Below are positions 432 to 61,092 of a stretch of 64,000 bases of DNA, piece by piece (position 1 is the first letter of the stretch; every line of letters begins with the position of its first letter). The translations under genes and the position numbers were made by a program. The notes below the pieces were generated by a model that was given only the letters and a program-made list of their open reading frames with translations, was not told the DNA's origin and made no database searches. The stretch lies in IMG/VR virus record IMGVR_UViG_3300025600_000001, positions 53,569 to 117,568 of that record. One strand, 5' to 3'. This DNA is from a virus.

Positions 432-652
432 GTGCAAAACCTGCAATAGTAAAAGTTCCAGGAACTTTTATTAAGATTGGTGATTACAGAATAATAAAAT
501 CAAGTGTGAAGAGGTATCAACCAAGTAAAAATGGATATATCAACATCTATTTTAACTCCTCAATAAATCATCCTGATTTTAAGAGTTTTCACTATACATC
601 AACTAAGTTACAACAAGAAGTTTTAGACTATTTAGATTCAATTTATTTATGA
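410..652 (+). CDS. hypothetical protein
   Basis: 80-aa ORF overlapping both neighbours in the operon. Confidence 0.6.
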   Translation: MGTRTTIGAKPAIVKVPGTFIKIGDYRIIKSSVKRYQPSKNGYINIYFNSSINHPDFKSFHYTSTKLQQEVLDYLDSIYL

Positions 653-676
653 ACAAAAGTAAAACAATACTATCAG

Positions 677-699
677 AAGAGGCTTTTGAGCCTCTTTTT
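677..699 (+). terminator. intrinsic terminator-like hairpin inside the UDG remnant
   Basis: AAGAGGCT-TTTG-AGCCTCTT followed by TTT. Confidence 0.45.
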
Positions 700-741
700 G
701 GTAGTTGGTGGCCTAAGATTAACAAATTCTCTGTTATTTTA

Positions 742-773
742 TTTGTATATTCTACTTATTTAGTATATATTTG
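742..773 (+). promoter_or_regulatory. Bacteroidota-type sigma promoter for the LAGLIDADG gene
   Basis: TTTG, 20-nt spacer, TATATTTG, matching the -33 TTTG / -7 TAnnTTTG consensus. Confidence 0.65.
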
Positions 774-801
774 TTAGATTAATTTAATACAACATTACTA
801 T

Positions 802-1782
802 ATGACATATTTTAAACTTACTCCAGAAATTCATAAAAATATAGCAGATGAATATATTTCATCTATAACTACTCAACAAGATTTAGCAAAAAAATATAAT
901 GTTAGTACAGTTATGATTTCAAATATATTAAAAAAATTTAAAATTCCTACAGATCATCGAAGAGGATTTTATAATGTAGATATTAATTATTTTAAAATTA
1001 TAGATACACCTAATAAATCATATTTTTTAGGTTTATTTCATGCCGATGGAAGTAACTCTGAGGAGCATAACTGTGTTAGAATTTCTTTACAGGAAAAGGA
1101 TAAAGAAATATTAGAAAAATTAAAAAAAGATATAAAATATTCAGGTCCTTTATATTATTTAAAAAAACAAGGAAATAGAAGTAATCAATTTTCATTAAAT
1201 ATTGTAGCAAAAGAATTATCACAAGATTTGGTAATTCTAGGTTATCCTAAGAATAAAACTTACAAAGTAGTATTTCCAGAATACTTAGAACAGTCATTAG
1301 TAAGACATTTTATTAGAGGATTGTTCGATGGAGATGGATGTATTCATGCTAAATATAAACATAGTTTAAGTATCGTTGGTACATGTAATACTTTGTTAGG
1401 AGTAAAAGATTATTTACAAGAAATATTAAATATAAATTCTGTAATAGTAGAAAGTAAATCTAAAAATATATTTAGATTAAGTATATGTAAAAAGATAGAT
1501 ATATTCAATACATTATGTCATTTATATGAAAATAGTGAATTGTATTTACAAAGAAAATATGACATCTTTCATCAAGTGTACATGATTCAGAAAGAACATT
1601 TATATTGGCAAATATACTGTAAAAATTTAAAAACTAATGAAATTAATATTTTTAAAAATATGCAAGAAACTAAAGAATTTTTTGGATTAAAATCCTATGC
1701 AGCAATATCTTATTGTATCCATAAAAGTAAAACTAAAATTTTTAGAAAAACGTATTATATAAATTTATTGAAAAATGAATAA
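802..1782 (+). mobile_element. free-standing LAGLIDADG homing endonuclease
   Basis: Two motifs, YFLGLFHADG and FIRGLFDGDG; N-terminal HTH-like and C-terminal NUMOD-like segments. Confidence 0.9.
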
Positions 1783-2566
1783 TTTAGATTGGAAGAAATT
1801 CGAACCACTTTTTGGTACATGGGCTTTAAAAATAAAGCCTTTTTTTGACTTAGGAGGTTTTGATAAAATATATGAGTTTCTTAAAAAAGAGTCAAAAAGA
1901 GGTAAAGAAATCGCACCTATGTCATCTCTTGTATTTAGAGCATTTCGAGAGACAGACATAAATACTCTTAAAGTAGTAATTGTTGGTTTAGCACCATATC
2001 ATACCTTTTATAATGGATCGTCTATTGCGGATGGTTTGTGTATGAGTTGTTCTATTACTAGTAGATTACAACCTAGTCTTTCTAATTTCTATAATGCTAT
2101 AGAACGAGAACTTTATAATGGACTTAATTTAAATATGTATAAAAATCCAGATCTTACCTATTTAGCCAGAGACGGAATTCTTCTATTGAACTATGCTCTC
2201 ACCACTAGTAAAAATAAACCAGGGGATCATTGTGTTCTTTGGGAACCTTTTATGAAATTTCTATTTGAACAGGTGTTAGATACTATTGGAGCTCCTGTTA
2301 TTTTCTTAGGACGTGAAGCAGCCAAACTAGAGAGATATACAATGCCTTTTAATTGGATATTTAAGTTATCTCATCCTGCCTCAGCAAGTTATCAAGGTAT
2401 CGAATGGGATTCTGAAGGAACATTTAAAACTATAAATAAGATTTTATGGGAGCGAAATAAAGAAACGATAAATTGGTTACAATTAGATAGTATAAACGAA
2501 AAGGAGATAAAAAATGAAGACAAAGTTAAAAAACCAGGAAAACCTAAATTTAGAAGTTCAAATTAA
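1775..2566 (+). CDS. ung: uracil-DNA glycosylase (family 1-like)
   Basis: KVVIVGLAPY (GQDPY-like), ADGLCMS, GILLLNYALT, HPAS motifs. Confidence 0.9.
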   Translation: MNNLDWKKFEPLFGTWALKIKPFFDLGGFDKIYEFLKKESKRGKEIAPMSSLVFRAFRETDINTLKVVIVGLAPYHTFYNGSSIADGLCMSCSITSRLQPSLSNFYNAIERELYNGLNLNMYKNPDLTYLARDGILLLNYALTTSKNKPGDHCVLWEPFMKFLFEQVLDTIGAPVIFLGREAAKLERYTMPFNWIFKLSHPASASYQGIEWDSEGTFKTINKILWERNKETINWLQLDSINEKEIKNEDKVKKPGKPKFRSSN

Positions 2567-2578
2567 AAAGAAATACTC

Positions 2579-4885
2579 ATGATTTTAGAAAAACAAACAG
2601 ATAATATTATACTAACAGAAGGAGATGTCTCAGAGAGTATAAATATGGAATTGGATTTGGATTCTGCTCAGATTTTGATGCAGATGTTAAGTAAAAATTT
2701 GTATTCTGATGCTATTGGTAGCACTGTTAGAGAAACCTGTAGTAATGCTTTAGATAGTCATCGAAAAGCAAATACAGATGATCCAATTATTGTTAGTTTT
2801 AAATCAAATAATGATAATACCTATTCGTTTTGTGTTCAAGATTTTGGTACTGGTCTGGATGCTGATGATGTAGAAAACATCATTAGCAAATATGGAAAAT
2901 CTACTAAAAGATTAGAAGCTAACTCATTGGGTATGATGGGATTGGGCTTTAAATCACCATTGGCTTATTCATCAAGTTTCACTTTTGTATGTCGTAAAGA
3001 TGGTATGGAATGGACATATATGATGTATGAAGGAGAAGATAGTAATAAGATTGATTTGTTGTATTCTCAGAAGACAATCGAAAAGAATGGTGTAAAAGTT
3101 ATTATTCCTGTAAAGTATTCAGATAAAAATGAATTTCTTACTAAAATTAGGGAACAACTTGCATATTTTGAAAATGTATTCTTTGATACAGGTAATGTTA
3201 GTAATGATTTTATAATTCATCGTGCTGAACATTATCAGATCTCTCCATTAGTTAATTCTAGTTTGATGCACATTTGTCTGGATAATGTCTATTATCCTAT
3301 TGATTTTGAGAAATTAGGAATTCCTCCTATTCATGTAGTTGTTGGTTTACGATTTGGTCTTAGTGATGGAATCTTTCCAACACCAAATAGAGAAGCAATA
3401 AGAATGACCCAAGAAGCTAAGAAGACTATTTTATCTAAAATAGCTAAAGTTGCAGATGTTTTTATAACTATGTATAATAATACAATAGTTGCTACTTCTG
3501 ACATACAAACTGTTTTTGAATATTATAAATCACAAGACAGATTGGTAACAATTAGTGATAAAACCTATAATGTATTTCAGCTTAAGAACTATAGTAGTAT
3601 AAAGATTACATCTCCTACATTAATAGGAGTTGAACTACTTAATTTAGAAGATTTGTATGAAGATAGAGAGAATATTCTTGGTGAATATCAAATCAGATAT
3701 AATATCAAGAATAGAAAAATGAGTGAAGTAAAATCTGGAGGGAGCAGAAATATACGACTTTATGATTTAAATAACACTCACTATTATCTCTATAATCAAC
3801 CTATCTCTGGAAAGAAAAAAGAATATCTTAAAAGTATATGTAGTTATGGTGATAGTCATGTTTGCAAAAAAATAGATCCTTATAAATTAGGATTTAATTC
3901 TAGAAAAAGTTGGTCATCTACTAGTAGTTATTACAGTATACTCAATCTTAAAAACTATAAAAGGACTGAATGGAGACAAAGAATTAAAGAGTTTCAATTT
4001 ATTCAACAGAAATTTACAGAAAAGTTTATTGGTGTTGATAGTATGGAGATTCCTCAGAGTTACATAGATGCTAGAAAAAAAGAGAGAGTTTCGTCTTTAA
4101 ATAATGGTAATGGAAGAAGAGTTAAACTTACAGGAGAACTTTTTGGTAAAACTGCTATGCCTCTTGAGAGATATGTAAGTGGTCAAAATTGTAAATTTGT
4201 TGCAGACACTTATATTCTTGCTGATATTCCTAAATATAAAGGATTGACTGTATACGACAGTTACGACAATCAACCTCTACTTGATAGTCTATATTACGTA
4301 ACACGTAACTGTAGACATAAACTAAGAATTCTAAGTTTCTCAAATAGAGAGATGAAAGTTCTAAATGACATTAATATTCATAATCTAATATCTTATAGTA
4401 AATTTATGGAAGGAGAAAATAAACCATTTAAAAGATTAATTACAGCACATTTAATTAATACATTAATGTCTACGTACAATCATGTATTTAGTAAACGAGA
4501 TTATCTAACTAGTATTTCACAACCTCTTTTAGATAAACTTAATAAGTTATCTGACTATAAAAATGATTATTATTGTTATGCAGATAGTAATATCTATGTA
4601 AGTATGCTATCTGTAGCAGAAGAACACATGTTATTTGATATGAAAATCTATTCTGATTATTTAGATATTAAGAATGTATTTTTGAAATTAACTTTTCTTA
4701 ATACTGTAATGAAAACTATAAAAGATTATGAGAATGATCCGATGATTCCTATACTTGTAGATTTGTTTAAATATTATAGATATAGAATTGATTATAAGAA
4801 CTATCATATCCCTCTTAATGAAATGATTGATTTCGATTCATTACTACTAACAGATGAAACTGTTAACGAATTAACTATTATTTAA
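2579..4885 (+). CDS. rIIA: RIIA-like protein with N-terminal GHKL ATPase domain
   Basis: LYSD..VRE..SNALDSH, DFGTG, YGKSTK, GMMGLGFKS motifs; followed by an rIIB-like gene. Confidence 0.85.
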   Translation: MILEKQTDNIILTEGDVSESINMELDLDSAQILMQMLSKNLYSDAIGSTVRETCSNALDSHRKANTDDPIIVSFKSNNDNTYSFCVQDFGTGLDADDVENIISKYGKSTKRLEANSLGMMGLGFKSPLAYSSSFTFVCRKDGMEWTYMMYEGEDSNKIDLLYSQKTIEKNGVKVIIPVKYSDKNEFLTKIREQLAYFENVFFDTGNVSNDFIIHRAEHYQISPLVNSSLMHICLDNVYYPIDFEKLGIPPIHVVVGLRFGLSDGIFPTPNREAIRMTQEAKKTILSKIAKVADVFITMYNNTIVATSDIQTVFEYYKSQDRLVTISDKTYNVFQLKNYSSIKITSPTLIGVELLNLEDLYEDRENILGEYQIRYNIKNRKMSEVKSGGSRNIRLYDLNNTHYYLYNQPISGKKKEYLKSICSYGDSHVCKKIDPYKLGFNSRKSWSSTSSYYSILNLKNYKRTEWRQRIKEFQFIQQKFTEKFIGVDSMEIPQSYIDARKKERVSSLNNGNGRRVKLTGELFGKTAMPLERYVSGQNCKFVADTYILADIPKYKGLTVYDSYDNQPLLDSLYYVTRNCRHKLRILSFSNREMKVLNDINIHNLISYSKFMEGENKPFKRLITAHLINTLMSTYNHVFSKRDYLTSISQPLLDKLNKLSDYKNDYYCYADSNIYVSMLSVAEEHMLFDMKIYSDYLDIKNVFLKLTFLNTVMKTIKDYENDPMIPILVDLFKYYRYRIDYKNYHIPLNEMIDFDSLLLTDETVNELTII

Positions 4886-4910
4886 ATATAAACATTAAAA
4901 ATAAAAACTT

Positions 4911-6326
4911 ATGGATTTTTCATTAAATTGGTTTAAGAGTAAAAAGAAAGAAGAAAATGTACAGAAGATATATGTTCCTCAATCAACAACATCTTATGGT
5001 GTTGATCCTTTAGATCACAATGTAGAGTTTATGCATGTGCCTTATAAGTCTATTAAGATGGTTAATGATGTAATTACTGTGGTGTTACTTGATGGAACAA
5101 TTATTATCAAACCTTCTGCAGTAGAACTAGATTTTATAAAAATTTCAAAAGCTACTACGATTGCTGAAATCTTAAACTTAGTAACTCTTCCCGAAATACT
5201 AGAAGAAAAACTTAAAGTTAAAGCTGAAGAAGAACGTAATATTGTTCTACATAAAGGAATCGAACTTCTAAAAGAAGTTAGTGATTTTAGAGTTGAAGAT
5301 AATACTGTTTATATGGTAGGAACAAATAGAAGTGTTCCTGAACTCTTAGTTAATGAATTTATTGAAATTGTAGGAAGTTATGACTTTTCATCAATTTCTA
5401 TGTCTATTAATGAGTATGTAGCAAAAAATGAAAAGTATCAAAGTTTAAAGAACTTCTTTCTTTGGGCATGTCTTAATCCAAGAGCTGAAGTAGCTAATGA
5501 TCTATATGACTTTCTAAAAAGAAATAGTTTTAAGATCACTAAACAAGGATTCTTTGCAGCTCTTAGAAATGTTGTCACGCTTAATGATAATAGTGAAGAG
5601 TTTGATAACAATAGAGCACTTGTTGATTTTGTAAGTAATTCTTACAATAAGATTAAAGCTGTTTGGAAACAGAAACCTTCTAAATTTGATGTTTATAGAA
5701 ATACTGATCATTTTGGAGAAAACTCTTTTTATCTTTGGAAAATTGAAGAAACTCCAAATATTAAGAATAATGGAAACGAATGTATGGGTAATTTAGAAAC
5801 TCTTTACAAACAGGATATGCCAGAGATGAAAGGTAATCGTTTCACTGATGATCACACAAAAACATTCGACATTCGTGTAGGAAAAGTTGTAAGTATGCCT
5901 ATGAAAAAATGTAGTTGGTCGACAGCAGATTGCGATAAAGCAGGTTTACATTTTACTTCAGATCAGATTCACTATGTAGGATGTGGAGATACTTCTATGT
6001 TAGTACTAATCAATCCAATGAAGGTTGTAGGAATAGGTACATCTAAAGGAAGATGTTATGAATATCTTCCAATTATGACAGTTCCTCGTGAAGAAGCAAC
6101 ACAACTTCTACATGATTTAGATTTTGATACTCTTGAATTAGATGAAGACTATGTCATTCATGAATTAGAAAGTCTTAGTGAAAAAGTCAAGAGTGGTTTC
6201 ATAGCAGAAACTACTAAATATAGTTTCAATCTTCCAGCAACATCTACAGAAGAAATTGAGACTATTATAAAATCTTTATCATTAATGAAAGAACTCATTT
6301 CTAAACGAGTAAGTGTAATTAAATAA
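4911..6326 (+). CDS. rIIB: RIIB-like protein
   Basis: NP..LYDFL..ITKQGFFAALR, CDKAGLHF, VLINP..VV, KGRCYEY motifs; adjacent to rIIA. Confidence 0.8.
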   Translation: MDFSLNWFKSKKKEENVQKIYVPQSTTSYGVDPLDHNVEFMHVPYKSIKMVNDVITVVLLDGTIIIKPSAVELDFIKISKATTIAEILNLVTLPEILEEKLKVKAEEERNIVLHKGIELLKEVSDFRVEDNTVYMVGTNRSVPELLVNEFIEIVGSYDFSSISMSINEYVAKNEKYQSLKNFFLWACLNPRAEVANDLYDFLKRNSFKITKQGFFAALRNVVTLNDNSEEFDNNRALVDFVSNSYNKIKAVWKQKPSKFDVYRNTDHFGENSFYLWKIEETPNIKNNGNECMGNLETLYKQDMPEMKGNRFTDDHTKTFDIRVGKVVSMPMKKCSWSTADCDKAGLHFTSDQIHYVGCGDTSMLVLINPMKVVGIGTSKGRCYEYLPIMTVPREEATQLLHDLDFDTLELDEDYVIHELESLSEKVKSGFIAETTKYSFNLPATSTEEIETIIKSLSLMKELISKRVSVIK

Positions 6327-6331
6327 TTCAT

Positions 6332-6371
6332 GTGGTGTATTCCTTTAATTTAGGGATACATCACTAATTTT
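6332..6371 (+). terminator. putative intrinsic terminator
   Basis: GTGGTGTATTCCT ... AGGGATACATCAC stem-loop right after the rIIB stop. Confidence 0.5.
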
Positions 6372-6376
6372 AATTT

Positions 6377-6778
6377 ATGAAAATAAAAAAAGTAGTTATA
6401 AAAAAAGTAAAACCTCGTAATGGAGGAACAATGACTAATAGTCAGTATTTTTCTAAAATCAGATCAATACTTAGAAATGGTTTTAGATACTATAGACCTA
6501 TGCAAGATGCTCTTAATTTAGTAAGTAGACCTTCTCAGTCTTTAAATAAAAAACTTAAAAAAGAATATCAGTGCTTTCATTGTAAAAAATGGTTTAAACG
6601 AGATGATGTAGAAATTGATCACATTGAAGAATGTGGTAAACTAAATTGTTATGACGATATTGTACCATTTATTCAAAGACTTACCAGAGAAGAAGTTAGT
6701 GCATATCAAGTATTATGTAAATCGTGTCATAGTATAAAAACTGAAAAGTATAAACAACTTAAAAATGAAAGACTATGA
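6377..6778 (+). CDS. HNH endonuclease (zinc-binding)
   Basis: CFHC..EIDHI..QVLCKSCH..KT. Confidence 0.85.
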   Translation: MKIKKVVIKKVKPRNGGTMTNSQYFSKIRSILRNGFRYYRPMQDALNLVSRPSQSLNKKLKKEYQCFHCKKWFKRDDVEIDHIEECGKLNCYDDIVPFIQRLTREEVSAYQVLCKSCHSIKTEKYKQLKNERL

Positions 6779-7044
6779 TAATTCGTAGAAAAAAAGATTT
6801 ATGGAAAGGATATCTTGTAGATGGTAGAGTTTATCAAACTGAGACACATACAAGAAGAGACGATTTACTTGCATGTATTGCACGTAAAGAAAGTGTTATG
6901 TGGATATTAAATGATGGACGGAAAATGACTCTTACCTTTGATCAATTAAAGGATGAAGTTGAAGATATAGGTACTCCACAGAAAAGTATAAAGAATACTT
7001 CACCTTATAGTTTATGGTGTTATACATTTATAGAAGATAACTAA
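6775..7044 (+). CDS. hypothetical protein
   Basis: 89-aa ORF with ATGA overlap to the HNH gene. Confidence 0.65.
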   Translation: MIIRRKKDLWKGYLVDGRVYQTETHTRRDDLLACIARKESVMWILNDGRKMTLTFDQLKDEVEDIGTPQKSIKNTSPYSLWCYTFIEDN

Positions 7045-7045
7045 A

Positions 7046-7210
7046 ATGAAACAGAAATTATTAAAATCGACAATTAGTGTACTAGAAGCCTTAAAAGAAG
7101 ATGCGAATATGGCATTGAATGGAACTTGGGATTGTACTGAACCAGGTTTCAGAGCCCAAATTAGAGCAATTAATGGAGTTTTATCAGAACTAAAAGCAAA
7201 ATTAAAATGA
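7046..7210 (+). CDS. small hypothetical protein (54 aa, not in ORF track)
   Basis: MKQKLLKSTISVLEALKEDANMALNGTWDC...; fills the operon gap exactly. Confidence 0.6.
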   Translation: MKQKLLKSTISVLEALKEDANMALNGTWDCTEPGFRAQIRAINGVLSELKAKLK

Positions 7211-7275
7211 TAGAAGGAATTAAAAAAATAAATTCTGAAAGTGATTATCGTAAGATACAACTTGATTCAAGTTAA
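7207..7275 (+). pseudogene. orphaned 5' end of the nuclease gene at 8123
   Basis: MIEGIKKINSESDYRKIQLDSS* versus MIKGINKNIDEKSYRTICLDSA (12/22 identical, ungapped). Confidence 0.85.
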
Positions 7276-7343
7276 AAAAGAGAAAAGTTATAGGATTATA
7301 TATTTAATTTTTGTATATTTATATATAACTAAGTTATAATAAG

Positions 7344-8117
7344 ATGATTGGAATCTATAAAATAACAAGTCCTTCGAATAAAGTTTATATAGGACAAAGT
7401 TGGAATTTGATTAAAAGAGAGAAAGATTATAAGTCTTTAGCTAATATAATTAGACAAAGAAAAATATATAATTCTATGAAAAAATATGGAGTAGATAAAC
7501 ATATTTTTGAAATACTTCATATTCTTTCAGATACTACTATACAAAAAGAATTAGATTATTGGGAAATATATTATTGGAAGTATTTTATATCTCAAGGATT
7601 TGAAATGCTTAATATTAAAGAACCAGGAAAAGGAGGAAGATTAGATATTGAAACTAAAGAAAAGATATCTAAATCAAATAAGGGAAGAATTAGAAGTGAA
7701 GAAGTAATGAGTAAAATTAAGAATTTAGATAGATATAATCTTCCTATTCTAATGTTAAATTTAAATGGAAAAATCATAAGAGAGTTTAGAAATATAAATT
7801 CATGTTCACGAGAATTACATGTTAGTTCTTCTAATATAAAATCAGTAATGAATGGTAAAACTAAAACATGTTTATCTCATATTTTTATAAAAAAAGTAGA
7901 TTATGATGAATCTAAATTTACACAAATAATAGTTCCTGGTGGATGTACTGAGGTAAATCAATATGATTTAGATAATAATTTTATTAAAAGTTTTTTAAGT
8001 TTTAAAAATATTAGATTAGAATTAGAATTAAAAATAGGATGTGATCCTAATATTATAAGAGCTTGCAAATCTGAAAATAGAATAGCTTATGGTTTTAAAT
8101 GGAAATATAAAAATTAA
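7344..8117 (+). mobile_element. free-standing GIY-YIG homing endonuclease
   Basis: GIYKIT..KVYIGQS; NUMOD3-like ETKEKISKS and NUMOD1-like C-terminal repeats. Confidence 0.9.
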
Positions 8118-8122
8118 TAAAT

Positions 8123-9181
8123 ATGATTAAGGGAATAAATAAAAACATAGATGAAAAAAGTTATCGAACAATTTGTCTTGACAGTGCTAGTTCTTTAAAA
8201 GATTTTTCACTAGATAGAAAATTATATTTTAAACGTTACGTTTTGTATGAGGTAGTAGAAGAGAAGTTTAATCAATCAATATTGATGGGAAATCTTGTTG
8301 ATTGTATGTTATTAACGCCTAATTTATTTGATAATAAATTTTATATGTCAGCATGTGCATCTTCGCCTTCTGGATTGATGTTAGAATTTGTAGAAGCTCT
8401 TTATAGAGCAACTAGAGATGCTATGGGAGAGGACAAAATCTTAACAAAGAATTTTGAAGAACTGTCAAAGATTGCATATTTAGCCAGTGGCTTCAAAATT
8501 AAATATGAAGCAGTGATAGGTAAGTTTATGGATTCTGACAATCAAATTTACTATGACGAATTAGTAAAGGTGAGAACTAATAATCTACTAGTAGTTACAA
8601 TTGATCAGGTAAATAAAGCTGAACAAATTGTTGAAGAATTAAAAGTTAATTTTGTAACTAAAGAAATTCTTACACGTATAAATAGTCAAAGATGGACTGT
8701 TCTAGTACAACATCAGGTAGAAAACTATTTGGTTGATAATCATCCTTTTAAGAGTATGATGGATTTATGTATTATAGACCATCAAGAAAAGATTATTCAG
8801 ATTTATGACTTGAAATGTGTATGGACCGTTGAAGGCTTTTTTTCTGACTACTATCTTTTTCGTAGAGCATACATTCAGGGATATTTATATTGGAGAGCTG
8901 CTATGTATATGAGTAATGATATTAATAGTGAATTCTACGAATATACTGTTCTACCTCCAAGATTTATTGTATGTGATAGTATTAACTATTTTAATCCCTT
9001 AATATATACAATGTCAAATGATGATCTAAAGGATGCGTATGAAGGATTTGAACACAAAGGACATAAATATCCTGGTGTAAAAGAGATAATTTTAAATCTT
9101 GATTGGAATATAAATAATAATATCTGGGGGATGAGTAGAGAAAACTATATTAACAATGGTATAGTAAATATTAAAGATTAG
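8123..9181 (+). CDS. PD-(D/E)xK exonuclease-like protein
   Basis: SASSLK, GNLVDCML, KSMMD..IYDLK, YIQGYLY motifs. Confidence 0.75.
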   Translation: MIKGINKNIDEKSYRTICLDSASSLKDFSLDRKLYFKRYVLYEVVEEKFNQSILMGNLVDCMLLTPNLFDNKFYMSACASSPSGLMLEFVEALYRATRDAMGEDKILTKNFEELSKIAYLASGFKIKYEAVIGKFMDSDNQIYYDELVKVRTNNLLVVTIDQVNKAEQIVEELKVNFVTKEILTRINSQRWTVLVQHQVENYLVDNHPFKSMMDLCIIDHQEKIIQIYDLKCVWTVEGFFSDYYLFRRAYIQGYLYWRAAMYMSNDINSEFYEYTVLPPRFIVCDSINYFNPLIYTMSNDDLKDAYEGFEHKGHKYPGVKEIILNLDWNINNNIWGMSRENYINNGIVNIKD

Positions 9182-9191
9182 AAACTATAAA

Positions 9192-9746: not shown

Positions 9747-9807
9747 TTGTTGTTGTAATCTGATTTAATTGGGAGTAATATCTATCAGAATCAGATTCAT
9801 TTTTTGT

Positions 9808-9848
9808 ATCCTCTTAGGTTCTTTAATAGGAACTTAAGAGGATTTTTA
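9808..9848 (+). terminator. intrinsic terminator
   Basis: ATCCTCTTAGGTTC ... GAACTTAAGAGGAT stem plus T run; a TATCTTTA -7-like box follows, upstream of recA. Confidence 0.6.
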
Positions 9849-9868
9849 ATCAAATTTTCGTATCTTTA

Positions 9869-10936: not shown

Positions 10937-10956
10937 ATAATGTTAATAAATAATGT

Positions 10957-11391: not shown

Positions 11392-11400
11392 AAATAAATA

Positions 11401-11763: not shown

Positions 11764-11781
11764 ATAAAAAATCTTAATTTT

Positions 11782-12235: not shown

Positions 12236-12305
12236 TTATCAATATTCTCTATCTATAGGAATAACTATAAGAAGGAGAAAGATAGTAATACTAAAAACTT
12301 ATAAT

Positions 12306-12560: not shown

Positions 12561-12574
12561 GAATAAAGAGAATA

Positions 12575-15862: not shown

Positions 15863-15867
15863 TAATA

Positions 15868-51277: not shown

Positions 51278-51279
51278 AA

Positions 51280-53507: not shown

Positions 53508-54670
53508 GTAGCTGTAGAATAAGGATTTATAGTACATTGACAATGTGTAATAACATTAGTATCTAGTGTTACTGAACCAGTTAACGCAAATACCTTTCCA
53601 GTTAAAATTGCACCTGTATCACAAGTTACTGAAATCTCAGCAATAATGTTACCAACTACTACTGCACCTGTAGCTAATGTGGCAGAAGAACCTGTAACCC
53701 AATATACATTACAAGGTTGCGCGTTATTTATTAATGATACAATAGCACTACTGGTTGGAAGAAATGTAGTAGGAATTTGAAATACGAATATTGCATCAGG
53801 ATCACCACCACCATCAAGAGTAACAATTCCTGTTATAGTTAAAGAACTAGATGTACTATATATACCAGGAGTAATGGTCGTTCCTCCAATATCTGCTAAT
53901 ACAGAACCTGTTGGGGGTAATGTTCCTAGATAAATAAAAGCAGCAGTTGCATCATCTTTTGCATTACTTGCTGTTGTATCAGTAATATGTTGTACTCCAT
54001 TCACTATTCCTGGAGGAAATCCTATCACCGAAGTTCCTGGATATAACCCTAAATCTCTATCTATAATTGTTGATCCTGTACTAGTTATATTTACATGAGC
54101 CAATACATCAAAATTACTAGCTCTACCTAAAGTATTACATACAATAAATGTAGTGGTAGTGGTAGTAGTACTAATGGTAGGACATACTATATCTATACAA
54201 TTATCTTGTTGATCTATATCTAATATAAAATCAGTAGGTACATTCCTTTGACAACCTTGATCACTATCTATATGAAGTTTTTCTCCTATTCTAGTATTAT
54301 AATACCATTTTCCTACAGTCAAAGGTTGACTATTAATTACCCCTCCAGTTCCAGATATTAAACATGTATCACAATAATATGTAGTTACATCATATCCATA
54401 TGATTGACATATAGTTACGTCTTCTGCATTTCCTTCTAAAGAACAATCTATAGTATTCTCAATAACCCCTACAATAAAATCAAGATCATCACAACATCCA
54501 TTAATTCCTGAATAAAAGAAATTATTTTCAGCAATGTAAAAGTTAGGAAGATAACTATGAAAACTTATCCATGCTTTTGCATTAACATGATATGAAACTG
54601 TCCAACTCTTATTACAAAAGTATTTTGGATCATCTAAAGAGATTAACTTTCTTGTTATAACTTTTGCCAT
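53504..54670 (-). CDS. muzzle middle fragment fused to a DUF3494 ice-binding-like domain
   Basis: FCNKSWTVSY..WISFHSY, then poly-Thr, then LGRASNFDVLA..GFPPG..PGIY..NVYWVTGSSATL. Confidence 0.75.
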   Translation of the reverse strand: MAKVITRKLISLDDPKYFCNKSWTVSYHVNAKAWISFHSYLPNFYIAENNFFYSGINGCCDDLDFIVGVIENTIDCSLEGNAEDVTICQSYGYDVTTYYCDTCLISGTGGVINSQPLTVGKWYYNTRIGEKLHIDSDQGCQRNVPTDFILDIDQQDNCIDIVCPTISTTTTTTTFIVCNTLGRASNFDVLAHVNITSTGSTIIDRDLGLYPGTSVIGFPPGIVNGVQHITDTTASNAKDDATAAFIYLGTLPPTGSVLADIGGTTITPGIYSTSSSLTITGIVTLDGGGDPDAIFVFQIPTTFLPTSSAIVSLINNAQPCNVYWVTGSSATLATGAVVVGNIIAEISVTCDTGAILTGKVFALTGSVTLDTNVITHCQCTINPYSTAT

Positions 54671-54690
54671 AGCTTATAATTTTGTAAACT

Positions 54691-57600
54691 TTATGGTATA
54701 AAATTTATAGTACTAAATGAAGGTAACTGTGATGCTCCATTTATACCATATGATAAAGAAGATAAATAAGTTAATGTATAAGGAGTAGTTATATCTATAT
54801 TATAAAGAGTAGCAGAATCAGCAATATATATACCACCACTATATTCATACAACCCAAAAGGAGCAACAAGAGTTATAGGAATGTCTAAATCAACTGCCCC
54901 AGTTGTATAATCATACTGAGTTACAAATTTATTACCCCCACTATTATTATTAAGTACTATTAATTTATTAGTTGTAGTTAATACGAAGTCACCAGTTACA
55001 GTTCTACCACTAATTGAACTAAATTTTAATGTATTTACACTTGTAGTTGTAGTAATATCACATTCGTATACATCTCCACCAGCATTATTTATAAGAGTAA
55101 CATCATCTTTAGCACATAATCCAGCAGACCCATTAACATTAGTAATCGATCTATTAAATATAGCAGTAAAAGGACTTAAAGTAATATTCCACTCATCAAT
55201 CCCATGACTAGAATAGAGCCATAATTTATTTGCCGTATGGGCAATATCACTACTCGTAGTAAGTATTCCTGGAATAGTCAATAATGATGAAATATTTGTA
55301 ACTGGATCATATGCATAAACTTGAGTTGGATTATCAGATGTATTAAATAATACACTACCTTCAGATACTATTATAGTGGTAGTAGTTGTAGTTGTAGTGG
55401 TACTAGTTGCTGGATAACATGGAGTTTCTGAATCATTATATATAGAATATGCTCCATTAGTTGCTGCGATCCAAGTAGCGTTACTATTAGCATTAGTAAT
55501 AGGTGTAAGATTTCTATATAAAGTTTCTTTTAAATTCTCAGTAATCCAATATAATTCATTAATACAAACTGCATTATAAAGTTTTCCATTATTTCCTATA
55601 TAAGTAATAGTTGTACCATCTAATATACCAACAGCATCACTAACAAGTCTTACAGGATTTCCCCAATTCATAGTACCATTTGTTGCAGAAATTGCATTTG
55701 GATCATTATATGAAAAATCTATTTCATCAGTAATACCATTTCCATAAGAGTAAGCAGTATATTGGTTAATACCAAAAAAAGTACCATCAAAAGCATTTCT
55801 ATATCCAACTGGAAGTAGATGTAATCCAAAACTATCTAATGCATTATCATTAGGAGATAACCAATTTATACATAAATCATCTATAGATTTATATTGTCCC
55901 ATATTTATATAAGTAGATACCAATGGAGTTTGACTTCCTGAATATAATTGAGTCCAATCTCCTCTAGTAGCTACTCGCCAACCTGTATTAGCAAGACTTG
56001 CTCCATTTATTCCAATTTGTGAATATCCATTATAATAATATTCATAACAACATTCAAGAACAAAAATAGTACTTGTAGTAGTGGTAGTAGTACTTGTAGT
56101 AGTAGGTATCTCCTCCTCAATATAGAACTGATTGGTAACATTATCAAATTTAATTTGATTTGTAAATTCAGGATGAGGAATATAATCTAGTTTTGTGATG
56201 ATCACTCTGTCATATTTACTATCATAGACACCATGTAATCCTATTCCTGCAAAATGATTATCTGTATTTACATCTGGAAAATAACGTAAGATTTCAAATG
56301 CTAAATGATCTGTAAAGAATCTATTCATCCCTGATCCAAATGCTGATAAATCAATAGCCTGAGTATCAGAAATTAAAAAGATCTGTCCTCTTTTAGCATC
56401 AACTGTAATTTGACCTTGTGGTATCCTTAAGAGAAATTTATTCTGGCTTCCTACATATCCTAAATCAGTTTCTGCAAAATCAATAGGAGGAGCACCTTTA
56501 AATAACGAATCATTACCTACAAATGCTGCCTGAGGGTTACTTGTATTAATAGTAAGTAGATTGTTATATAAAAGACTTTTGTCCTCAAAACGAGCTAAAA
56601 CTGCCCTATTTTGAATACCATCTAAAGAAATAAGAGGTCCATAGTTTTGAGGAAAATCAAAATACGATAAAGCTCTAAATGTAAGCCATGCATTCACTCT
56701 ATTGTCAGCAGCGGATGTTTGTACATCAGAGTAGATTGCTCTAAAAGGAAACTGAGTAAAACAAGATCTATCCCAGTCTATAGGAATATGTGTAAATGTA
56801 TTTTCTGTATTCTGTTTAGAATAAGTTGTATTGTAATAATAGGTATTATCCTGAGCAATTGGAACCCAAGATTCTTGTACCCAATCATCAGGAATTGATG
56901 TAGTAACATGTGGATAGAAATCTCCTTCTCTATTATTAAAAGCTTGTCTTAAATCTGTATTATAAGAACTCTCACAATAGAAATAAGGAACTCCATAAGC
57001 AAATAAATAGAAATATCCACTATAGAATAATAAAGTATTACTAACAACTGTACTTCCTGGAGCAAGTGTTGTACTAGTTGTAGAGGTAGAAGTATTTATA
57101 GAAGCAGTAGTGTTTCCAGTTGGGCAATCAAAGTTGTGTGCCTTATACGAAATAATACCTGGAAGAATACCTGCAGAAGATGTCACATAGTCTTTAGTTA
57201 TACTTCGTGCAGAATGCCAATATTTAGGAAAAGCAACATTACCAATCTGATCGTAAAACACATCACTATCATCAGGAGCATTCACTCTATTATCTAAAAA
57301 GAATGGAAGTTTAGTTTTAAATCCAAATCTACTAATAAAGGTATCTCCACCAAATACTGTGTTATTAGTTGAAGGAACCTCGAATACTCTCTCAAATCCA
57401 GTATCAATAGTTTCATAAGAATACATTTGACCCCATTGATTCACAATGTCATTCTTTAAAGAAGCATAGTATGATACTACTGTGATATCTTCTATATTTG
57501 AAGGATTCTCACAATTTCCTTTTCCTGAAATAGTAAATCTTGAATGATCAGATATTTTATTATTAATACTTATCTGATCATTAGGAAAAGGTAAATTAGT

Positions 57601-60372
57601 ACCATTTGTTTTTAAGAAGATAGAAGACTCTCGTTGGTAGTTATTAACAGAATGATCATCTCCTACAGATTCAACAATAGGGATGAGGTATCTTGATATA
57701 TCTAAATTACGTTGTTTTACTCCTGTATTATTTGGAACATAGTCTGCATAGTTATAATCTGCAATAGAATTAAATGAATATGCGTAATTCTGTCTAGTCA
57801 TTCCATTAAGATATATTTGAATATATGCTTGATAGGATGCAATCAATAATGTAGTATCTGCTCCTGCTACTTTTTCTGAAGCAGTTAATGCCTGTCTTTG
57901 TGCTTCTTCTGTTAGAAGTTTATATTTTGCATTATTTCTTACTTGTATAAAATGAGCAAGTCCTTTACCATATATAACATTTTCTAGTTTTAATATATTA
58001 CCTAAAAATGGTTGACCAAAGGATGTCTCAGGAGAATTAAAAATAAGTCTACCATTATCAAATAAAGGTGGTAAAGAATTAGTTGTATCATCAGTAGTAC
58101 AAGTTGTATTATTAACAACTGATTCTTGAAAAGTAATAAATATACCACAATGATCACAACCTTCTATACATCCTGGTTTAGTTCCTGGAATTACATTTAC
58201 TAAAAGAACATCGTTATCAGGAAAACCACGTAACCATGTTGAACTAAGTCCTTCTATACGATCTAACCATTGAACTCTCCAACCACTACAAAAATCAAAA
58301 CTACCACTACTAGACTGAACTAAATACGTGTCATAGTTGGAATAAGAAATTCTAGATTGTCCAATAGTACTTGTAGGTTTAGTAAGAGAACAGATTGACT
58401 GTTGTGTACCTAAAGTAGTATATTTATCTGATGATATAGACTTTCCTGTAATACAACTTGTATAACTTAGTTGAGTAAATCCATCAGGACCTAATGCTGT
58501 AATATCAATATCAAAAGATGTACATGACTCAGCAAAAGCATTATTTGTAATATCAAGAAAGGGATCAACTCCTAAATCGTTATATGGATAATTTGGATAG
58601 TAATAGTCTTGATTATCTTTTGTATATTTTCCAGCATTTCTTAAAATACCTTTTGCAACAATGGACTTATTAGTACTACGATCACCTCTTAATATTTTAT
58701 ATCCTATTATCTCAACTTTCTGACTATGAGTTAAGTTAGATGATCCGATAAGTCCTAATATTTGCTGAGTATCTACATGTATACCAATTGGAAATACAGC
58801 ATCGTTACCCATTACTAAATGAGTAGAATCTATAAAAATCTTTGATTCAAAAATAGGACTTACAAGAACATCTGGAAATTTATGATGTCTAATTTTCTGT
58901 CCACCAAGATCTCCCCACACATTAGTATTACAAGGATATTCTTCTGTTGACTCCCAATAAGCCATTTCTCCAATTTGATAAGGACCTCTATAATTAATAT
59001 CTGCTGAATAACCAGGTGAATTACCAGTTACAGAAGCAGTATTATATATTTTCCAATAAGGAGAATAACCTACTCCTCCAGATACATAATCAGGATTACC
59101 AATAAAATCAGGATTTGTATTAGGAATATCTGGTATACTTTCACTATTACTTTTAGTTCTTCCAGGAATATGAAAACTATCTGTTTGTTTACCATTTGCT
59201 AAAAGAAAAGCAATCTCATATGGATATACTTCATCTCGTAATTGTGAACGAAGATTTGTAGCATTTAATTCATCTGCATAATTTTCTATAGCAGGAATTC
59301 TCCAAGTTTCCCATTGAAGATGAATCTGACTTGCAATACCCTGATAGTTAAGTCTATCAAGCATAGAAAGATTACTAAATACTAATATCTCTTGTGTAGC
59401 AGTTACATCCTGAGCAGTATCATAAAAAGGAAATTTCTCAAAAATATCCTGAATAGATAATGGTATTGATGTTACATTTTGTCCTGTATAAGTTATTTTT
59501 ATAGTGGAATTAGTAATATAAAAAGTTCCTACCAATTCTACTGTAGATATAGCATTGATTGTTTTTATAACAGCAATATTGAAATATTGGAATTGTCCTG
59601 TAATATCTAAATCACTCACTTGAATTATAATAGATTTATCTACAGGATAATTAAAATTTAATGTAGTGACATGTATATCTGCAATAGGTGTAGGATTTGT
59701 AATAGACTGATATGAATTATAAGGATTTCCTAAAGCATCTGAATATTGAATAGCAAATTGATAAGTTCCAGCAAGTAGATTTCCTCCATTTACTACATCA
59801 ATAACTGATAGTAATGGTGTATTAAATTTTGGTTGAATACTTAATTGATTACAATCAATTTGGTCTGTAAACAAAGGATCACATAGAGTTGATCCAGGTT
59901 TTAACGTATTAGGAACATCATCAATATTAAGAAATCTTAGAGGATTTAAACCATCTGTCCAATAAATTTCTGTAGCACAAGTATTAACTTTGTGTGCCAC
60001 TTTAAGTATAGGATGATTAATATCAAAATTTAAACAAGGAGCATTGACTAATGTATGATATATACAATCGTTATTATCCAGATGTCCAATTTCACTCTCA
60101 CCAGTATCAGGATTAGTTAGAAAGAATATATGTTTATTCTTTTCACTAATGAATTGTGTACCTATAAGAACAAGTCCACTAGGAAATGTAAGACATAACT
60201 CATTACCTTCTTCATTTTGGTACGAAAAACTATTAGCATCATAGTTTTCCATAGCTGCATTTAATGCGTAGGTCAATACCCCAGGTTGCAACTGGTTAAT
60301 TGAACTATCCATATTTAAACCTGCTCTTGCAGTATTCTGATGGATTTTAATATTTGATGGTTCGTTATCCAT
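54691..60372 (-). CDS. muzzle/tail stabilization protein, N-terminal part, with appended FISUMP-like and beta-propeller-like domains
   Basis: GLNMD..YALNA, IYWTDGLNP, GTYQFAIQY, RDEVY, IRHHKFPD, FGGDTFISRF; lies downstream of a tail tubular gene. Confidence 0.8.
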   Translation of the reverse strand: MDNEPSNIKIHQNTARAGLNMDSSINQLQPGVLTYALNAAMENYDANSFSYQNEEGNELCLTFPSGLVLIGTQFISEKNKHIFFLTNPDTGESEIGHLDNNDCIYHTLVNAPCLNFDINHPILKVAHKVNTCATEIYWTDGLNPLRFLNIDDVPNTLKPGSTLCDPLFTDQIDCNQLSIQPKFNTPLLSVIDVVNGGNLLAGTYQFAIQYSDALGNPYNSYQSITNPTPIADIHVTTLNFNYPVDKSIIIQVSDLDITGQFQYFNIAVIKTINAISTVELVGTFYITNSTIKITYTGQNVTSIPLSIQDIFEKFPFYDTAQDVTATQEILVFSNLSMLDRLNYQGIASQIHLQWETWRIPAIENYADELNATNLRSQLRDEVYPYEIAFLLANGKQTDSFHIPGRTKSNSESIPDIPNTNPDFIGNPDYVSGGVGYSPYWKIYNTASVTGNSPGYSADINYRGPYQIGEMAYWESTEEYPCNTNVWGDLGGQKIRHHKFPDVLVSPIFESKIFIDSTHLVMGNDAVFPIGIHVDTQQILGLIGSSNLTHSQKVEIIGYKILRGDRSTNKSIVAKGILRNAGKYTKDNQDYYYPNYPYNDLGVDPFLDITNNAFAESCTSFDIDITALGPDGFTQLSYTSCITGKSISSDKYTTLGTQQSICSLTKPTSTIGQSRISYSNYDTYLVQSSSGSFDFCSGWRVQWLDRIEGLSSTWLRGFPDNDVLLVNVIPGTKPGCIEGCDHCGIFITFQESVVNNTTCTTDDTTNSLPPLFDNGRLIFNSPETSFGQPFLGNILKLENVIYGKGLAHFIQVRNNAKYKLLTEEAQRQALTASEKVAGADTTLLIASYQAYIQIYLNGMTRQNYAYSFNSIADYNYADYVPNNTGVKQRNLDISRYLIPIVESVGDDHSVNNYQRESSIFLKTNGTNLPFPNDQISINNKISDHSRFTISGKGNCENPSNIEDITVVSYYASLKNDIVNQWGQMYSYETIDTGFERVFEVPSTNNTVFGGDTFISRFGFKTKLPFFLDNRVNAPDDSDVFYDQIGNVAFPKYWHSARSITKDYVTSSAGILPGIISYKAHNFDCPTGNTTASINTSTSTTSTTLAPGSTVVSNTLLFYSGYFYLFAYGVPYFYCESSYNTDLRQAFNNREGDFYPHVTTSIPDDWVQESWVPIAQDNTYYYNTTYSKQNTENTFTHIPIDWDRSCFTQFPFRAIYSDVQTSAADNRVNAWLTFRALSYFDFPQNYGPLISLDGIQNRAVLARFEDKSLLYNNLLTINTSNPQAAFVGNDSLFKGAPPIDFAETDLGYVGSQNKFLLRIPQGQITVDAKRGQIFLISDTQAIDLSAFGSGMNRFFTDHLAFEILRYFPDVNTDNHFAGIGLHGVYDSKYDRVIITKLDYIPHPEFTNQIKFDNVTNQFYIEEEIPTTTSTTTTTTSTIFVLECCYEYYYNGYSQIGINGASLANTGWRVATRGDWTQLYSGSQTPLVSTYINMGQYKSIDDLCINWLSPNDNALDSFGLHLLPVGYRNAFDGTFFGINQYTAYSYGNGITDEIDFSYNDPNAISATNGTMNWGNPVRLVSDAVGILDGTTITYIGNNGKLYNAVCINELYWITENLKETLYRNLTPITNANSNATWIAATNGAYSIYNDSETPCYPATSTTTTTTTTTIIVSEGSVLFNTSDNPTQVYAYDPVTNISSLLTIPGILTTSSDIAHTANKLWLYSSHGIDEWNITLSPFTAIFNRSITNVNGSAGLCAKDDVTLINNAGGDVYECDITTTTSVNTLKFSSISGRTVTGDFVLTTTNKLIVLNNNSGGNKFVTQYDYTTGAVDLDIPITLVAPFGLYEYSGGIYIADSATLYNIDITTPYTLTYLSSLSYGINGASQLPSFSTINFIP

Positions 60373-61051
60373 TTAATTCATTTATTATATCAGTTCGTCT
60401 TTTAGTACTAATTGATTTTTCTAATGACCAATTTAAATCTTTAAATCTATGACGTACCATAGGATAATCAACATTTAATTTTGCACAATAATCTTTTAAA
60501 CACATAGATTGATCATCTAATGATACTATTATATTAGTTTTTCTATTACGAGCTTGTTGTGCATAATTGGCTATTCTACAATTTTTTGGCTCATAATTTC
60601 CATCGTTATCTATTCTATCTATCTGAAGTCCCAATTTCCAATTATTACATTGAGCCCAATTATAGAAAGATATAAATTCAGTTCTCCATTCTTCACAAAC
60701 TATAATTCCTTTTTCTCCATAAAAATTATAACCTATATTATTCTTACAATAACATCTATTTTTCATATTTTGCCATTGCCCGTATAAAGGATGTTTATTT
60801 AAACCATGTATTATATTTGTTTCTTGAATTCTTTGTTTATTATAACATCCACAAGATTTAGTTATTCCTCTTTTTATTACAGAAATTGAAGATTTGAACT
60901 TTTTTCCACAATAACATTTAAATATAGCTTCTCTTCTTTTCTTTCCATATTTAGGATCAGTTCTATATCCTGCCTCTTCTAAATATTCTATATTTCCAAA
61001 CATATGTCCAGTAATATAATTTTCTCTTCTTGTAATTTTATAATTTATCAT
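60365..61051 (-). mobile_element. free-standing HNH-type homing endonuclease
   Basis: FKCYCG..KSCGC, W..MK.RC, YGEKGI.VCEEW, IDRIDNDGNYEPKNCR. Confidence 0.85.
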
Positions 61052-61092
61052 TAATATTCCTGTTTAATATTACCTTGTTCCTGATCAGCCAT
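61051..61092 (-). pseudogene. orphaned 5' end of the muzzle gene
   Basis: MADQEQGNIKQEY* versus the muzzle start MDNEPSNIKIHQ; stop overlaps the HNH ATG (TAATG). Confidence 0.6.

Follow-up and report, generated by a model that had tools for sequence, protein, structure and literature searches.

How can a phage gene stay whole when an endonuclease gene sits inside its first codons? The question is raised by three loci in a stretch of 64,000 nucleotides (the window, positions 53,569 to 117,568 of IMG/VR record IMGVR_UViG_3300025600_000001), which belongs to a crAss-like phage. An earlier note, made from the sequence alone, had claimed that the three loci share one layout, and this layout is present at all of them: a stub of gene X, coupled to the upstream gene, is followed by an endonuclease gene and then by a full-length gene X with a diverged start (Table 1). 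The host genes are kept whole by a foreign replacement start. We interpret the loci, with a probability of roughly 0.7, as homing cassettes without an intron, by which the 5' end of the target gene is replaced; cleavage by the enzymes, resistance of the new starts and expression without splicing are predicted from the sequence.

Table 1: Features of the three cassettes and their neighbours (positions are those of the window)
Feature	Position	Strand	Remarks
DUF932 gene, 3' part	1..431	+	host of fifth cassette
Upstream ORF, 80 aa	410..652	+	stop overlaps stub 1 ATG (ATGA)
Stub 1, dead 5' end of UDG gene	649..777	+	UDG-start likeness to ~729, then non-homologous to stop at 777
LAGLIDADG endonuclease gene, 326 aa	802..1782	+	LAGLIDADG_3 PF14528; phrog_4645
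Full-length UDG gene, 263 aa	1775..2566	+	start 8 nt before endonuclease stop; PF03167, E 4.3e-9
Upstream ORF, 54 aa	7046..7210	+	stop overlaps stub 2 ATG (ATGA)
Stub 2, first 22 codons of resident PD-(D/E)xK gene (7207-7272) and stop (7273-7275)	7207..7275	+	
Imported tract: spacer, GIY-YIG gene and ~68 foreign PD-(D/E)xK codons	7273..8325	+	BLAST against L089
GIY-YIG endonuclease gene, 257 aa, I-TevI type with NUMOD1	7344..8117	+	TIGR01453, NUMOD1
Full-length PD-(D/E)xK-type nuclease gene, 352 aa, chimera	8123..9181	+	begins 5 nt after endonuclease stop
Full-length muzzle gene, 1893 aa	54691..60372	-	crAss_MUZ, PF25731, E 4.5e-43; start 8 nt before endonuclease stop
HNH-type endonuclease gene, 228 aa	60365..61051	-	phrog_374, E 4.6e-49
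Stub 3, first 13 muzzle codons (61092-61054) and stop	61051..61092	-	stop overlaps endonuclease ATG (TAATG)
Tail ring protein 1 gene, upstream neighbour	61098..62063	-	CrAss_Ring_1, PF24228, E 2.3e-10
Second HNH-type gene, intergenic, without stub	62060..62512	-	ordinary free-standing insertion, for contrast

Detection of the Stubs and Identity of the Genes

The start of each of the 49 ORFs of the window was compared with its own upstream 2.5 kb. This self-similarity scan gave scores of 55 for cassette 1 (ung), 51 for cassette 2 (PD-(D/E)xK) and 27 for the muzzle gene of cassette 3, while most other ORFs scored 22-38 and two paralogous gene pairs 44 and 53. The muzzle score lies within the background, and cassette 3 was therefore established by relatives instead. 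Shuffled stub peptides matched the observed score in 0 of 2000 trials for cassette 1, 0 of 2000 for cassette 2 and 1 of 2000 for cassette 3. Stub and current start are identical at 13 of 23 aligned residues (ung), 12 of 22 (PD-(D/E)xK) and 6 of 12 (muzzle).

Three endonuclease families had been proposed, and curated models support two of them. The LAGLIDADG enzyme matches LAGLIDADG_3 in two stretches (PF14528, E 8.6e-13, 48.8 bits against a cut-off of 22.5) as well as phrog_4645 (E 3e-45), and has two paralogues elsewhere in the same genome. The GIY-YIG enzyme matches TIGR01453 (69.2 bits, cut-off 56.05) and NUMOD1 (E 1.2e-7, 32.2 bits, cut-off 22.8), the Pfam GIY-YIG domain staying at 17.3 bits, under its cut-off of 22.6. 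The third enzyme takes its HNH name from PHROGs only (phrog_374, E 4.6e-49). No Pfam or NCBIfam HNH match was found for it even at E <= 10, nor any PDB sequence match, and its structure model (pLDDT 93.1) gave zero Foldseek matches at E <= 0.001. VIA-align superposes residues 83-173 on PacI, an HNH enzyme, with Z 6.3 (rmsd 2.7, 76 residues aligned), a value that an unrelated chain ties at Z 6.4. Its assignment to the HNH family is tentative.

The PD-(D/E)xK label of the second host gene derives from a weak PHROG match to exonuclease VIII (E 5.9e-5), the annotation given to a crAss-like phage gene of 26% identity and a precomputed PF12684 match for 3 of 120 relatives.

Endonuclease-Free Alleles of the PD-(D/E)xK and Muzzle Genes

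Contig L089 is an endonuclease-free allele of the PD-(D/E)xK locus and matches the window by BLAST in two pieces. Its positions 1-154 fall on 7119-7272 of the window (154 nt, 97.4% identity), ending exactly at the last stub codon, and its positions 292-1640 on 8326-9674 (1349 nt, 94.5% identity); between the two matches, 1053 nt of the window stand against 137 nt of L089. The last 88 nt of the upstream ORF are the start of the contig (88/88 identical). Stub 2 agrees with the gene start of L089 in 21 of 22 residues and 62 of 66 bases, as compared with 11 of 22 residues for the current start. The four base mismatches all lie in the 3' half of the stub, which fits a crossover inside it. ORF 7241-7339 of the ORF list is not this stub, the stub being the frame 7207-7272.

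The full-length PD-(D/E)xK gene is a chimera. Counted in 30-nt intervals, 15-21 of 30 bases are identical to L089 up to ~8332 and 30 of 30 from 8363; the nucleotide identity is ~60% before this sharp breakpoint and ~95% after it. The protein shares 56, 76 and 52% of its residues with the L089 protein (P0122) in the first three 25-column intervals and 86-100% thereafter. The first ~68-73 codons are foreign and the remainder is L089-like.

At the muzzle locus, stub 3 is separated from the ring gene's stop by 5 nt. None of 80 ring-gene loci of relatives has an endonuclease between the ring and muzzle genes, and in 79 of the 80 the muzzle frame begins at the ring stop or at most 12 nt from it, the remaining locus being cut off. 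In the relative L004 the muzzle gene starts after the same 5-nt gap and shares 12 of 13 residues and 34 of 39 bases with the stub; the current start shares 5 of 12 residues. L004 and L045 are the closest relatives in muzzle residues 200-400, whereas residues 13-40 of the current muzzle start are closest to another lineage (81% versus 62%). At the cassette's left junction a small number of shared bases resemble microhomology.

The unit of endonuclease and new start is present in a second phage. In L087 an endonuclease 68% identical to that of the window overlaps a muzzle start of the current type by the same 8 nt, and no stub is present. The cassette can therefore persist without a stub, and a stub-less donor such as L087 would leave none by normal two-sided homing. 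The second HNH-type gene of the window is missing from L087.

The ung Locus

The upstream ORF of cassette 1 has a 63-aa relative in L092, directly before an uninterrupted UDG gene, and starts of the stub type are also found in intact UDGs. The UDG gene (412 relatives at E <= 1e-10) is a mosaic when compared with relatives. The stub outscores the current start in only 7 of 119 relatives, the overall closest relatives resemble the current start, and no empty site sufficiently close in sequence was found. Either of the two, stub or current start, may be the older copy. The earlier note had expected insertion-free relatives to resemble the stubs more than the current starts; this holds for the PD-(D/E)xK and muzzle genes and, in comparison with L140 and L092, for the two cassettes outside the window described below, but not for most relatives of ung.

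Cassettes Elsewhere in the Genome

The loci had been counted as three. This is correct within the window, but two further cassettes lie upstream of it, in a helicase gene and a DUF932 gene, making five in the genome. The DUF932 cassette has its stub and a GIY-YIG gene just upstream of the window (genome ~52029-53127). Its stub scores 83 against L092 and the current start 55; L092, the closest of 46 relatives, is the only one to resemble the stub, the other 45 being like the current start.

For the helicase cassette the empty site is L140, to which the flanks are ~97% and 100% identical. The stub matches it in 24 of 26 residues but in 61 of 78 bases, and the current start in 14 of 26 residues. 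Since the stub is far more diverged than the flanks, it moved along with the cassette. The helicase gene is 50-70% identical to that of L140 and then 100% identical over the last 483 nt, the imported part measuring ~140-200 codons. The replacement gene starts that had been predicted are there, but the imported tract, here as in the PD-(D/E)xK gene, exceeds the duplicated codons.

No stub was seen beside six other endonuclease genes of the genome, and none scoring at least 48 was found in 46 related loci. A second genome in which the same stub-bearing cassette sits in another backbone was not found; L088, a second contig with cassette 2 (98.9% identical over 2817 nt), is the same phage.

Possible Origin of the Cassettes

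In the mechanism that we propose, the endonuclease would cut an endonuclease-free allele of gene X within its first 13-30 codons, at a conserved motif, and a co-infecting cassette-bearing genome would serve as the template for repair of the break. On the left side the cut gene start would pair with the stub and upstream gene of the donor, on the right side the gene body of the recipient with that of the donor, and the endonuclease gene together with the diverged gene start of the donor would be copied in between both arms. The recipient's own start would persist as a dead stub next to its old upstream gene, and gene X would restart at a new ATG at, or a few bases from, the endonuclease stop, making RNA or protein splicing unnecessary. 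The enzymes probably cut at the junctions, and the new starts probably resist cutting. The stub may serve as the left homology arm, and the very first insertion may have been a one-sided, illegitimate break repair.

One-sided illegitimate break repair, summarised for T4 intron homing in PMC2988022, also speaks for another explanation, in which a single illegitimate recombination between diverged phages carried the endonuclease along, the stub has no role and no unit is homing now. The microhomology-like bases at the left junction of cassette 3, the retention of endonuclease and new start without a stub in L087 and the failure to find the same stub-bearing cassette in a second backbone all speak for such passive scars. 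Against them, the same layout occurs in five cassettes with three enzyme families in one genome, the junctions lie at conserved motifs of the target genes, the helicase stub travelled with its cassette, and the mismatches of stub 2 are gathered at its 3' end. We regard this explanation as unlikely. A duplication of the gene start in place, followed by insertion of the endonuclease between the two copies and by their divergence, would account for the homology between stub and current start at the three window loci. Here, however, the copy that is nearly identical to relatives is the non-functional one and the functional copy is diverged, and this divergence extends past the duplicated codons and then stops sharply. 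The identities of stub and current start to relatives contradict such a duplication for cassettes 2 and 3 and the helicase, and overall we find it very improbable.

If instead the stub were a first exon, with the endonuclease in a self-splicing intron (or with protein splicing or ribosome bypass as variants), the loci would resemble the short unannotated first exons found near phage endonuclease genes, for example in the ICP1 terminase according to excerpts of PMC10448857. No match to Rfam was obtained at gathering score for the whole window, nor by cmscan at E <= 1 for 300-9500 and 59800-62700, in agreement with the earlier note, to which no intron core was visible. The downstream host genes are already full length and run parallel with their relatives from their own ATG, so that adding the stub would duplicate the N-terminus, and each endonuclease ORF has a start and a stop codon of its own and is no in-frame part of the host gene. 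Full-length genes with their own ATG and the lack of an intron match fit expression that would need no splicing, and we give the first-exon reading hardly any credence. Chimeric contigs come to mind since the genome is a metagenome assembly. Cassette 2, however, occurs in the separate contig L088, which at 98.9% identity is a different sequence, and contigs of two runs, possibly the source runs, agree with the window across junctions 1 and 2 (depths near 577 and 297), leaving an assembly artefact with a next to negligible chance. We therefore retain the homing cassettes as the preferred reading.

Comparison with Known Homing Elements

An end fragment, an endonuclease gene and a full-length host gene, as found at the three window loci and two elsewhere in the genome, are also the parts of the WHO elements of Torulaspora and Lachancea yeasts at the aldolase gene FBA1, for which a mirrored 3'-end model was proposed and partly tested and cleavage was shown experimentally (Coughlan et al. 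2020, PMC7282813). As described in excerpts of that paper, the endonuclease gene lies next to a full-length host gene whose end each homing event replaces, the leftover gene fragment is proposed as homology arm, a sharp breakpoint marks the host gene as a chimera, and, with no splicing involved, the functional unit is the endonuclease gene plus the gene end that gives resistance; in these points the systems are alike. They differ in that WHO elements replace the 3' end, belong to one intein-derived enzyme family and move in eukaryote meiosis, whereas the present cassettes replace the 5' end, involve three families and reside in a phage. Here, unlike in WHO, the gene begins again at a new ATG that is coupled to the endonuclease's stop, and cleavage is a prediction.

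The parallel with fungal mitochondria drawn in advance is borne out by the mORFs, which form "gene hybrids" in atp6, atp9, cox2 and nad3 (Beaudet et al. 2013, PMC3630166, citing also the Allomyces atp6 case). In the excerpts of this paper, LAGLIDADG or GIY-YIG ORFs bring a foreign copy of a gene end and the native end stays alongside, being more similar to the gene in a near relative than the inserted copy is. By residue identities, a close relative's empty allele is likewise matched better by the leftover stub than by the copy in the gene, in cassettes 2 and 3 and the helicase cassette. In mORFs it is the C-terminal end that is duplicated, often in frame with the endonuclease ORF and in an organelle; the present cassettes duplicate the N-terminal end, keep the ORFs separate and belong to a phage.

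Among phages, the free-standing homing endonucleases of the T4 type are named Seg and Mob. Their genes are located between genes and are not known to leave a duplicated gene fragment, unlike the present insertions, which lie inside coding sequence and left a stub. The endonuclease ORFs described here are outside introns and inteins, have their own start and stop, and are present or absent among relatives (empty in L089, L140 and the 80 ring-gene loci). Excerpts of PMC2988022 describe the same for the T4-type enzymes, with genes outside introns and inteins, variable presence, intron-less homing and co-conversion of flanking markers, by which flanking host sequence is imported. In ICP1-like vibriophages, nuclease genes lie where recombined tracts end, beside essential genes (Barth et al. 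2023, PMC10448857); the position at exchange boundaries is shared with our cassettes, while the excerpts of that paper describe no duplicated gene starts. Group I introns differ from the three window loci, around which no RNA core was found (cmscan, E <= 1) and where the downstream ORFs are already full length. In the literature searched we found no description of a phage homing nuclease that replaces a gene start. In all five cassettes the replaced end is the 5' end and not the 3' end, which makes them a variant of the end-replacing homing elements rather than a member.

Layout of the Cassettes and Identity of the Enzymes

The virus record comprises 117,568 bases with direct terminal repeats, the window being bases 53569-117568, and crAss-type tail proteins are encoded in the window (ring, PF24228, E 2.3e-10; muzzle, PF25731, E 4.5e-43). 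Megablast of window 1-10000 and 54000-64000 against a phage collection gave no match, and protein searches of this collection returned relatives of at most 34% identity only. Known phages, cultured or named, are distant relatives only.

The earlier note had proposed that a dead 5' end of a host gene (stub), an endonuclease gene, and a full-length host gene with a diverged start follow one another at three loci. This layout was borne out and can be read in the sequence of all three cassettes (see the table). The host gene restarts 8 nt before the endonuclease stop in cassettes 1 and 3 and 5 nt after it in cassette 2. When each of the 49 ORF starts of the window was compared with its own upstream 2.5 kb, the UDG gene scored 55 and the PD-(D/E)xK gene 51, most other ORFs scored 22-38, and the muzzle gene, at 27, lay within this background. 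The observed score was attained by 0/2000, 0/2000, and 1/2000 shuffled versions of the stub peptides of cassettes 1, 2, and 3, respectively. Similar N-termini were also seen in two pairs of neighbouring genes on the minus strand (17130-17903 and 18608-19492, score 53-54; 25350-26981 and 26993-27229, score 44); these were rejected as endonuclease stubs and are paralogues.

Features of the five cassettes (window positions unless marked as genome)
Feature	Position	Strand	Remark
Cassette 1, stub ORF	649-777	+	ATG overlaps stop of ORF 410-652
Cassette 1, LAGLIDADG gene	802-1782	+	
Cassette 1, UDG gene	1775-2566	+	
Cassette 2, stub	7207-7272 plus stop codon	+	ATG overlaps stop of ORF 7046-7210
Cassette 2, GIY-YIG gene	7344-8117	+	
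Cassette 2, PD-(D/E)xK-type gene	8123-9181	+	
Ring gene upstream of cassette 3	62063-61098	-	
Cassette 3, stub (13 codons)	61092-61054	-	stop overlaps ATG of HNH-type gene
Cassette 3, HNH-type gene	61051-60365	-	
Cassette 3, muzzle gene	60372-54691	-	
Helicase cassette, GIY-YIG gene before SF2 helicase gene	genome 43952-44776		score 92
DUF932 cassette, GIY-YIG gene before DUF932 gene (end = window 1-431)	genome 52156-53127		score 62; DUF932 by Pfam

As for the enzyme families named in the earlier note, the LAGLIDADG and GIY-YIG assignments stand above curated cut-offs, while the HNH assignment of the third enzyme is likely but falls short of established. Its family is very large (107,990 representatives at E <= 0.001) and carries the PHROGs name HNH endonuclease, but the protein had no match in Pfam, NCBIfam, or PDB sequences. 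A Foldseek search with its structural model (pLDDT 93.1) returned nothing at E <= 0.001, and residues 83-173 of the model align to the HNH enzyme PacI with a Z of 6.3, a value tied by an unrelated chain.

Relatives Free of the Endonucleases

As far as comparison of sequences can do so, an empty site proves cassette 2, and relatives prove cassette 3. The closest relative of the cassette 2 nuclease protein (P0122, 87% identity) is encoded on the metagenome contig L089, whose first 88 bases are identical (88/88) to the end of the upstream ORF of the window. In agreement with the expectation that insertion-free relatives should match the stub, the L089 gene start equals the stub at 62/66 bases and 21/22 residues, against 11/22 residues for the current start. 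BLAST of L089 against the window falls into two pieces (1-154 on 7119-7272 at 97.4%; 292-1640 on 8326-9674 at 94.5%), so that 1053 window bases stand in place of 137 bases of L089. Counted over 30 bases at a time, the current gene agrees with L089 at 15-21/30 positions up to ~8332 and at 30/30 from 8363; along the protein, successive 25-column windows give identities to P0122 of 56, 76, and 52% for the first three and 86-100% for those that follow. The first ~70 codons resemble another lineage of the nuclease family (P0133, P0146, and P0170). Taken together, these breakpoints and the foreign first codons indicate that the imported piece consists of a spacer, the endonuclease gene, and ~70 foreign codons. 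Of the resident nuclease gene, codons 1-22 survive in the form of the stub, and those from 23 to ~68 were lost. Cassette 2 is also carried by the contig L088, which is 98.9% identical over 2817 bases, and a locus scan for the GIY-YIG gene gave two loci, both in unrelated contexts.

For cassette 3, 80 related ring-gene loci were compared. An ATG-started muzzle ORF lies 6-12 bases past the ring stop in 66/80, the muzzle frame runs from the region of the ring stop in 13/80, and the one remaining locus is cut off; none of the 80 has an endonuclease gene between the ring and muzzle genes. The expectation for insertion-free relatives holds here as well: in L004, the muzzle start equals the stub at 12/13 residues and 34/39 bases, it is separated from the ring stop by the same 5-nt gap as the window stub, and the likeness stops at the endonuclease ATG. 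L004 is also, with L045, the closest relative over muzzle residues 200-400 (73% and 72%, respectively), but the current muzzle start (residues 13-40) is closest to a different lineage, at 81% versus 62% for L004. In L087 (~74% DNA identity) the endonuclease gene is 68% identical, with the same 8-base overlap and a current-type muzzle start, so the two occur together in a second phage; no stub was found in L087. Directly before the ring gene, the two relatives L071 and L072 (3363-4004) have a 213-aa gene where the window has a stub-less HNH-type gene (62060-62512).

The ung locus gave a divided answer to the same expectation. The stub scores higher than the current start for 7/119 relatives, but the closest ones (69-72% identity) have starts that resemble the current one. 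Mosaicism is seen in the UDG family itself: the last third of the window UDG is 82-100% identical to the related protein P0002, against 44-80% for the first two thirds. UDG directly follows the DUF932 gene in 38/46 related loci, and in L092 the small upstream ORF of the window stands directly before an uninterrupted UDG gene. Cassette 1 appears real, its stub being a genuine UDG start of the type seen in intact relatives. Locus scans found neither UDG with LAGLIDADG on viral contigs nor ORF 410-649 with LAGLIDADG on genome contigs. In one contig of the run X1 (depth 10.5 versus ~577), window positions 653 and 2240 are joined across a stretch of unknown letters, one side being 30 letters of 80% likeness; the contig may stem from a relative in this community that is free of the endonuclease, or it may be noise.

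The spot between DUF932 and UDG is occupied in other ways elsewhere. L118 (3256-3880), from another phage, has a different GIY-YIG gene there; an apparent 5-codon UDG stub, too short to prove, overlaps the DUF932 stop, and the new UDG start lies inside the end of the endonuclease gene. Four relatives (L131, L132, L134, and L135, ~4470-5360) have at this spot a gene of 286-290 aa with an N-terminal glycine-rich motif of the nucleotide-binding type, possibly a sugar epimerase or dehydratase. The spot therefore receives cargo genes besides endonucleases.

Splicing and Expression Signals

The reported absence of an intron core was upheld, with no Rfam match at the gathering score in the window or at E <= 1 near the loci. 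Each gene behind an endonuclease has its full length and runs parallel to its relatives from its own ATG, so joining of the stub would duplicate the N-terminus. These observations fit cassettes that would do without splicing. A Bacteroidetes-type promoter pattern was seen at 742-773, ahead of the LAGLIDADG gene, but the window holds 8 matches to this pattern versus 4.7 expected and 13/100 shuffles reach 8, so no promoter is claimed. A scan for sigma-70 promoters and terminators remained at chance level.

Cassettes and Endonuclease Genes Elsewhere in the Genome

The same self-similarity scan, extended to the whole genome (134 ORFs, median score 30), revealed two further cassettes upstream of the window. 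The helicase cassette has an empty site in L140, whose upstream gene is ~97% identical and whose helicase start equals the stub at 24/26 residues. Identity of the helicase gene itself to that of L140 is 50-70% over the first ~420 bases and rises to 100% in the last 483. Despite near-identical flanks, the stub matches L140 at only 61/78 bases and is far more diverged than its surroundings, so it arrived with the cassette; such an imported stub is what a stub serving as homology arm would look like. The helicase stub is without an ATG of its own, and an extra 57-aa ORF, absent from L140, lies between it and the upstream gene (genome ~43668-45845, locus L138). In the DUF932 cassette, the stub-type start is found only in the best relative, L092, and the other 45/46 relatives resemble the current start.

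Another six endonuclease-like genes in the genome were inspected and show no stub beside them, and no further stubs were found in the 46 related loci at a score >= 48. An 80-aa ORF at window 25100-25342 (minus strand) resembles the N-terminal domain of the HNH-type endonuclease (E 8.3e-7) and could be what is left of a decayed endonuclease gene. The HNH gene at 6377-6778 (plus strand, phrog_1985) is kept at this position in two distant relatives (L001 and L092) and looks resident rather than mobile.

Proposed Homing by Replacement of Gene Starts

The data fit homing cassettes that replace the start of their host gene, for which cleavage and resistance of the new start are predicted. The stub would serve as the left homology arm, renewed from each recipient, and first insertion into a new backbone could have occurred by illegitimate, one-sided repair of the break, a route described for the homing of T4 introns (PMC2988022). 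We give about even odds (a probability near 0.5) to the wider reading, that start replacement with a stub so renewed serves phage endonucleases generally as a mode of mobility, by which at least three families free of introns and inteins settle in conserved motifs of essential genes, and that this process makes the 5' ends of core genes mosaic throughout the phage group.

A selfish nuclease gene could in this way inhabit essential phage coding sequence without splicing machinery; here this concerns the genes of a DNA repair enzyme, a nuclease, a helicase, and a tail component. In such genes, tens to hundreds of codons at the start may differ in ancestry from the rest, and gene trees would be misled. 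In annotation, stubs pass for small orphan genes and chimeric starts mimic fast evolution. Since empty-site alleles are known for three cassettes, a guess at the target sites of the enzymes can come within a few bases, and direct cleavage tests would be cheap.

Duplication of a gene start next to an endonuclease gene was not found described for any phage in the accessible text of the literature, including PMC10448857, PMC8351571, and PMC2988022; supplements may hold examples. The phage cassettes can be seen as the mirror image of the model proposed for yeast WHO elements, in which a gene fragment left behind acts as homology arm and resistance stems from the replaced gene end (PMC7282813). They also mirror the fungal mitochondrial mORF gene hybrids, in which the sister species resembles the native end more closely than the inserted copy (PMC3630166). 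The similarity to gene-fragment-carrying endonucleases of fungal mitochondria that the earlier note had pointed out is sustained, in a mirrored arrangement.
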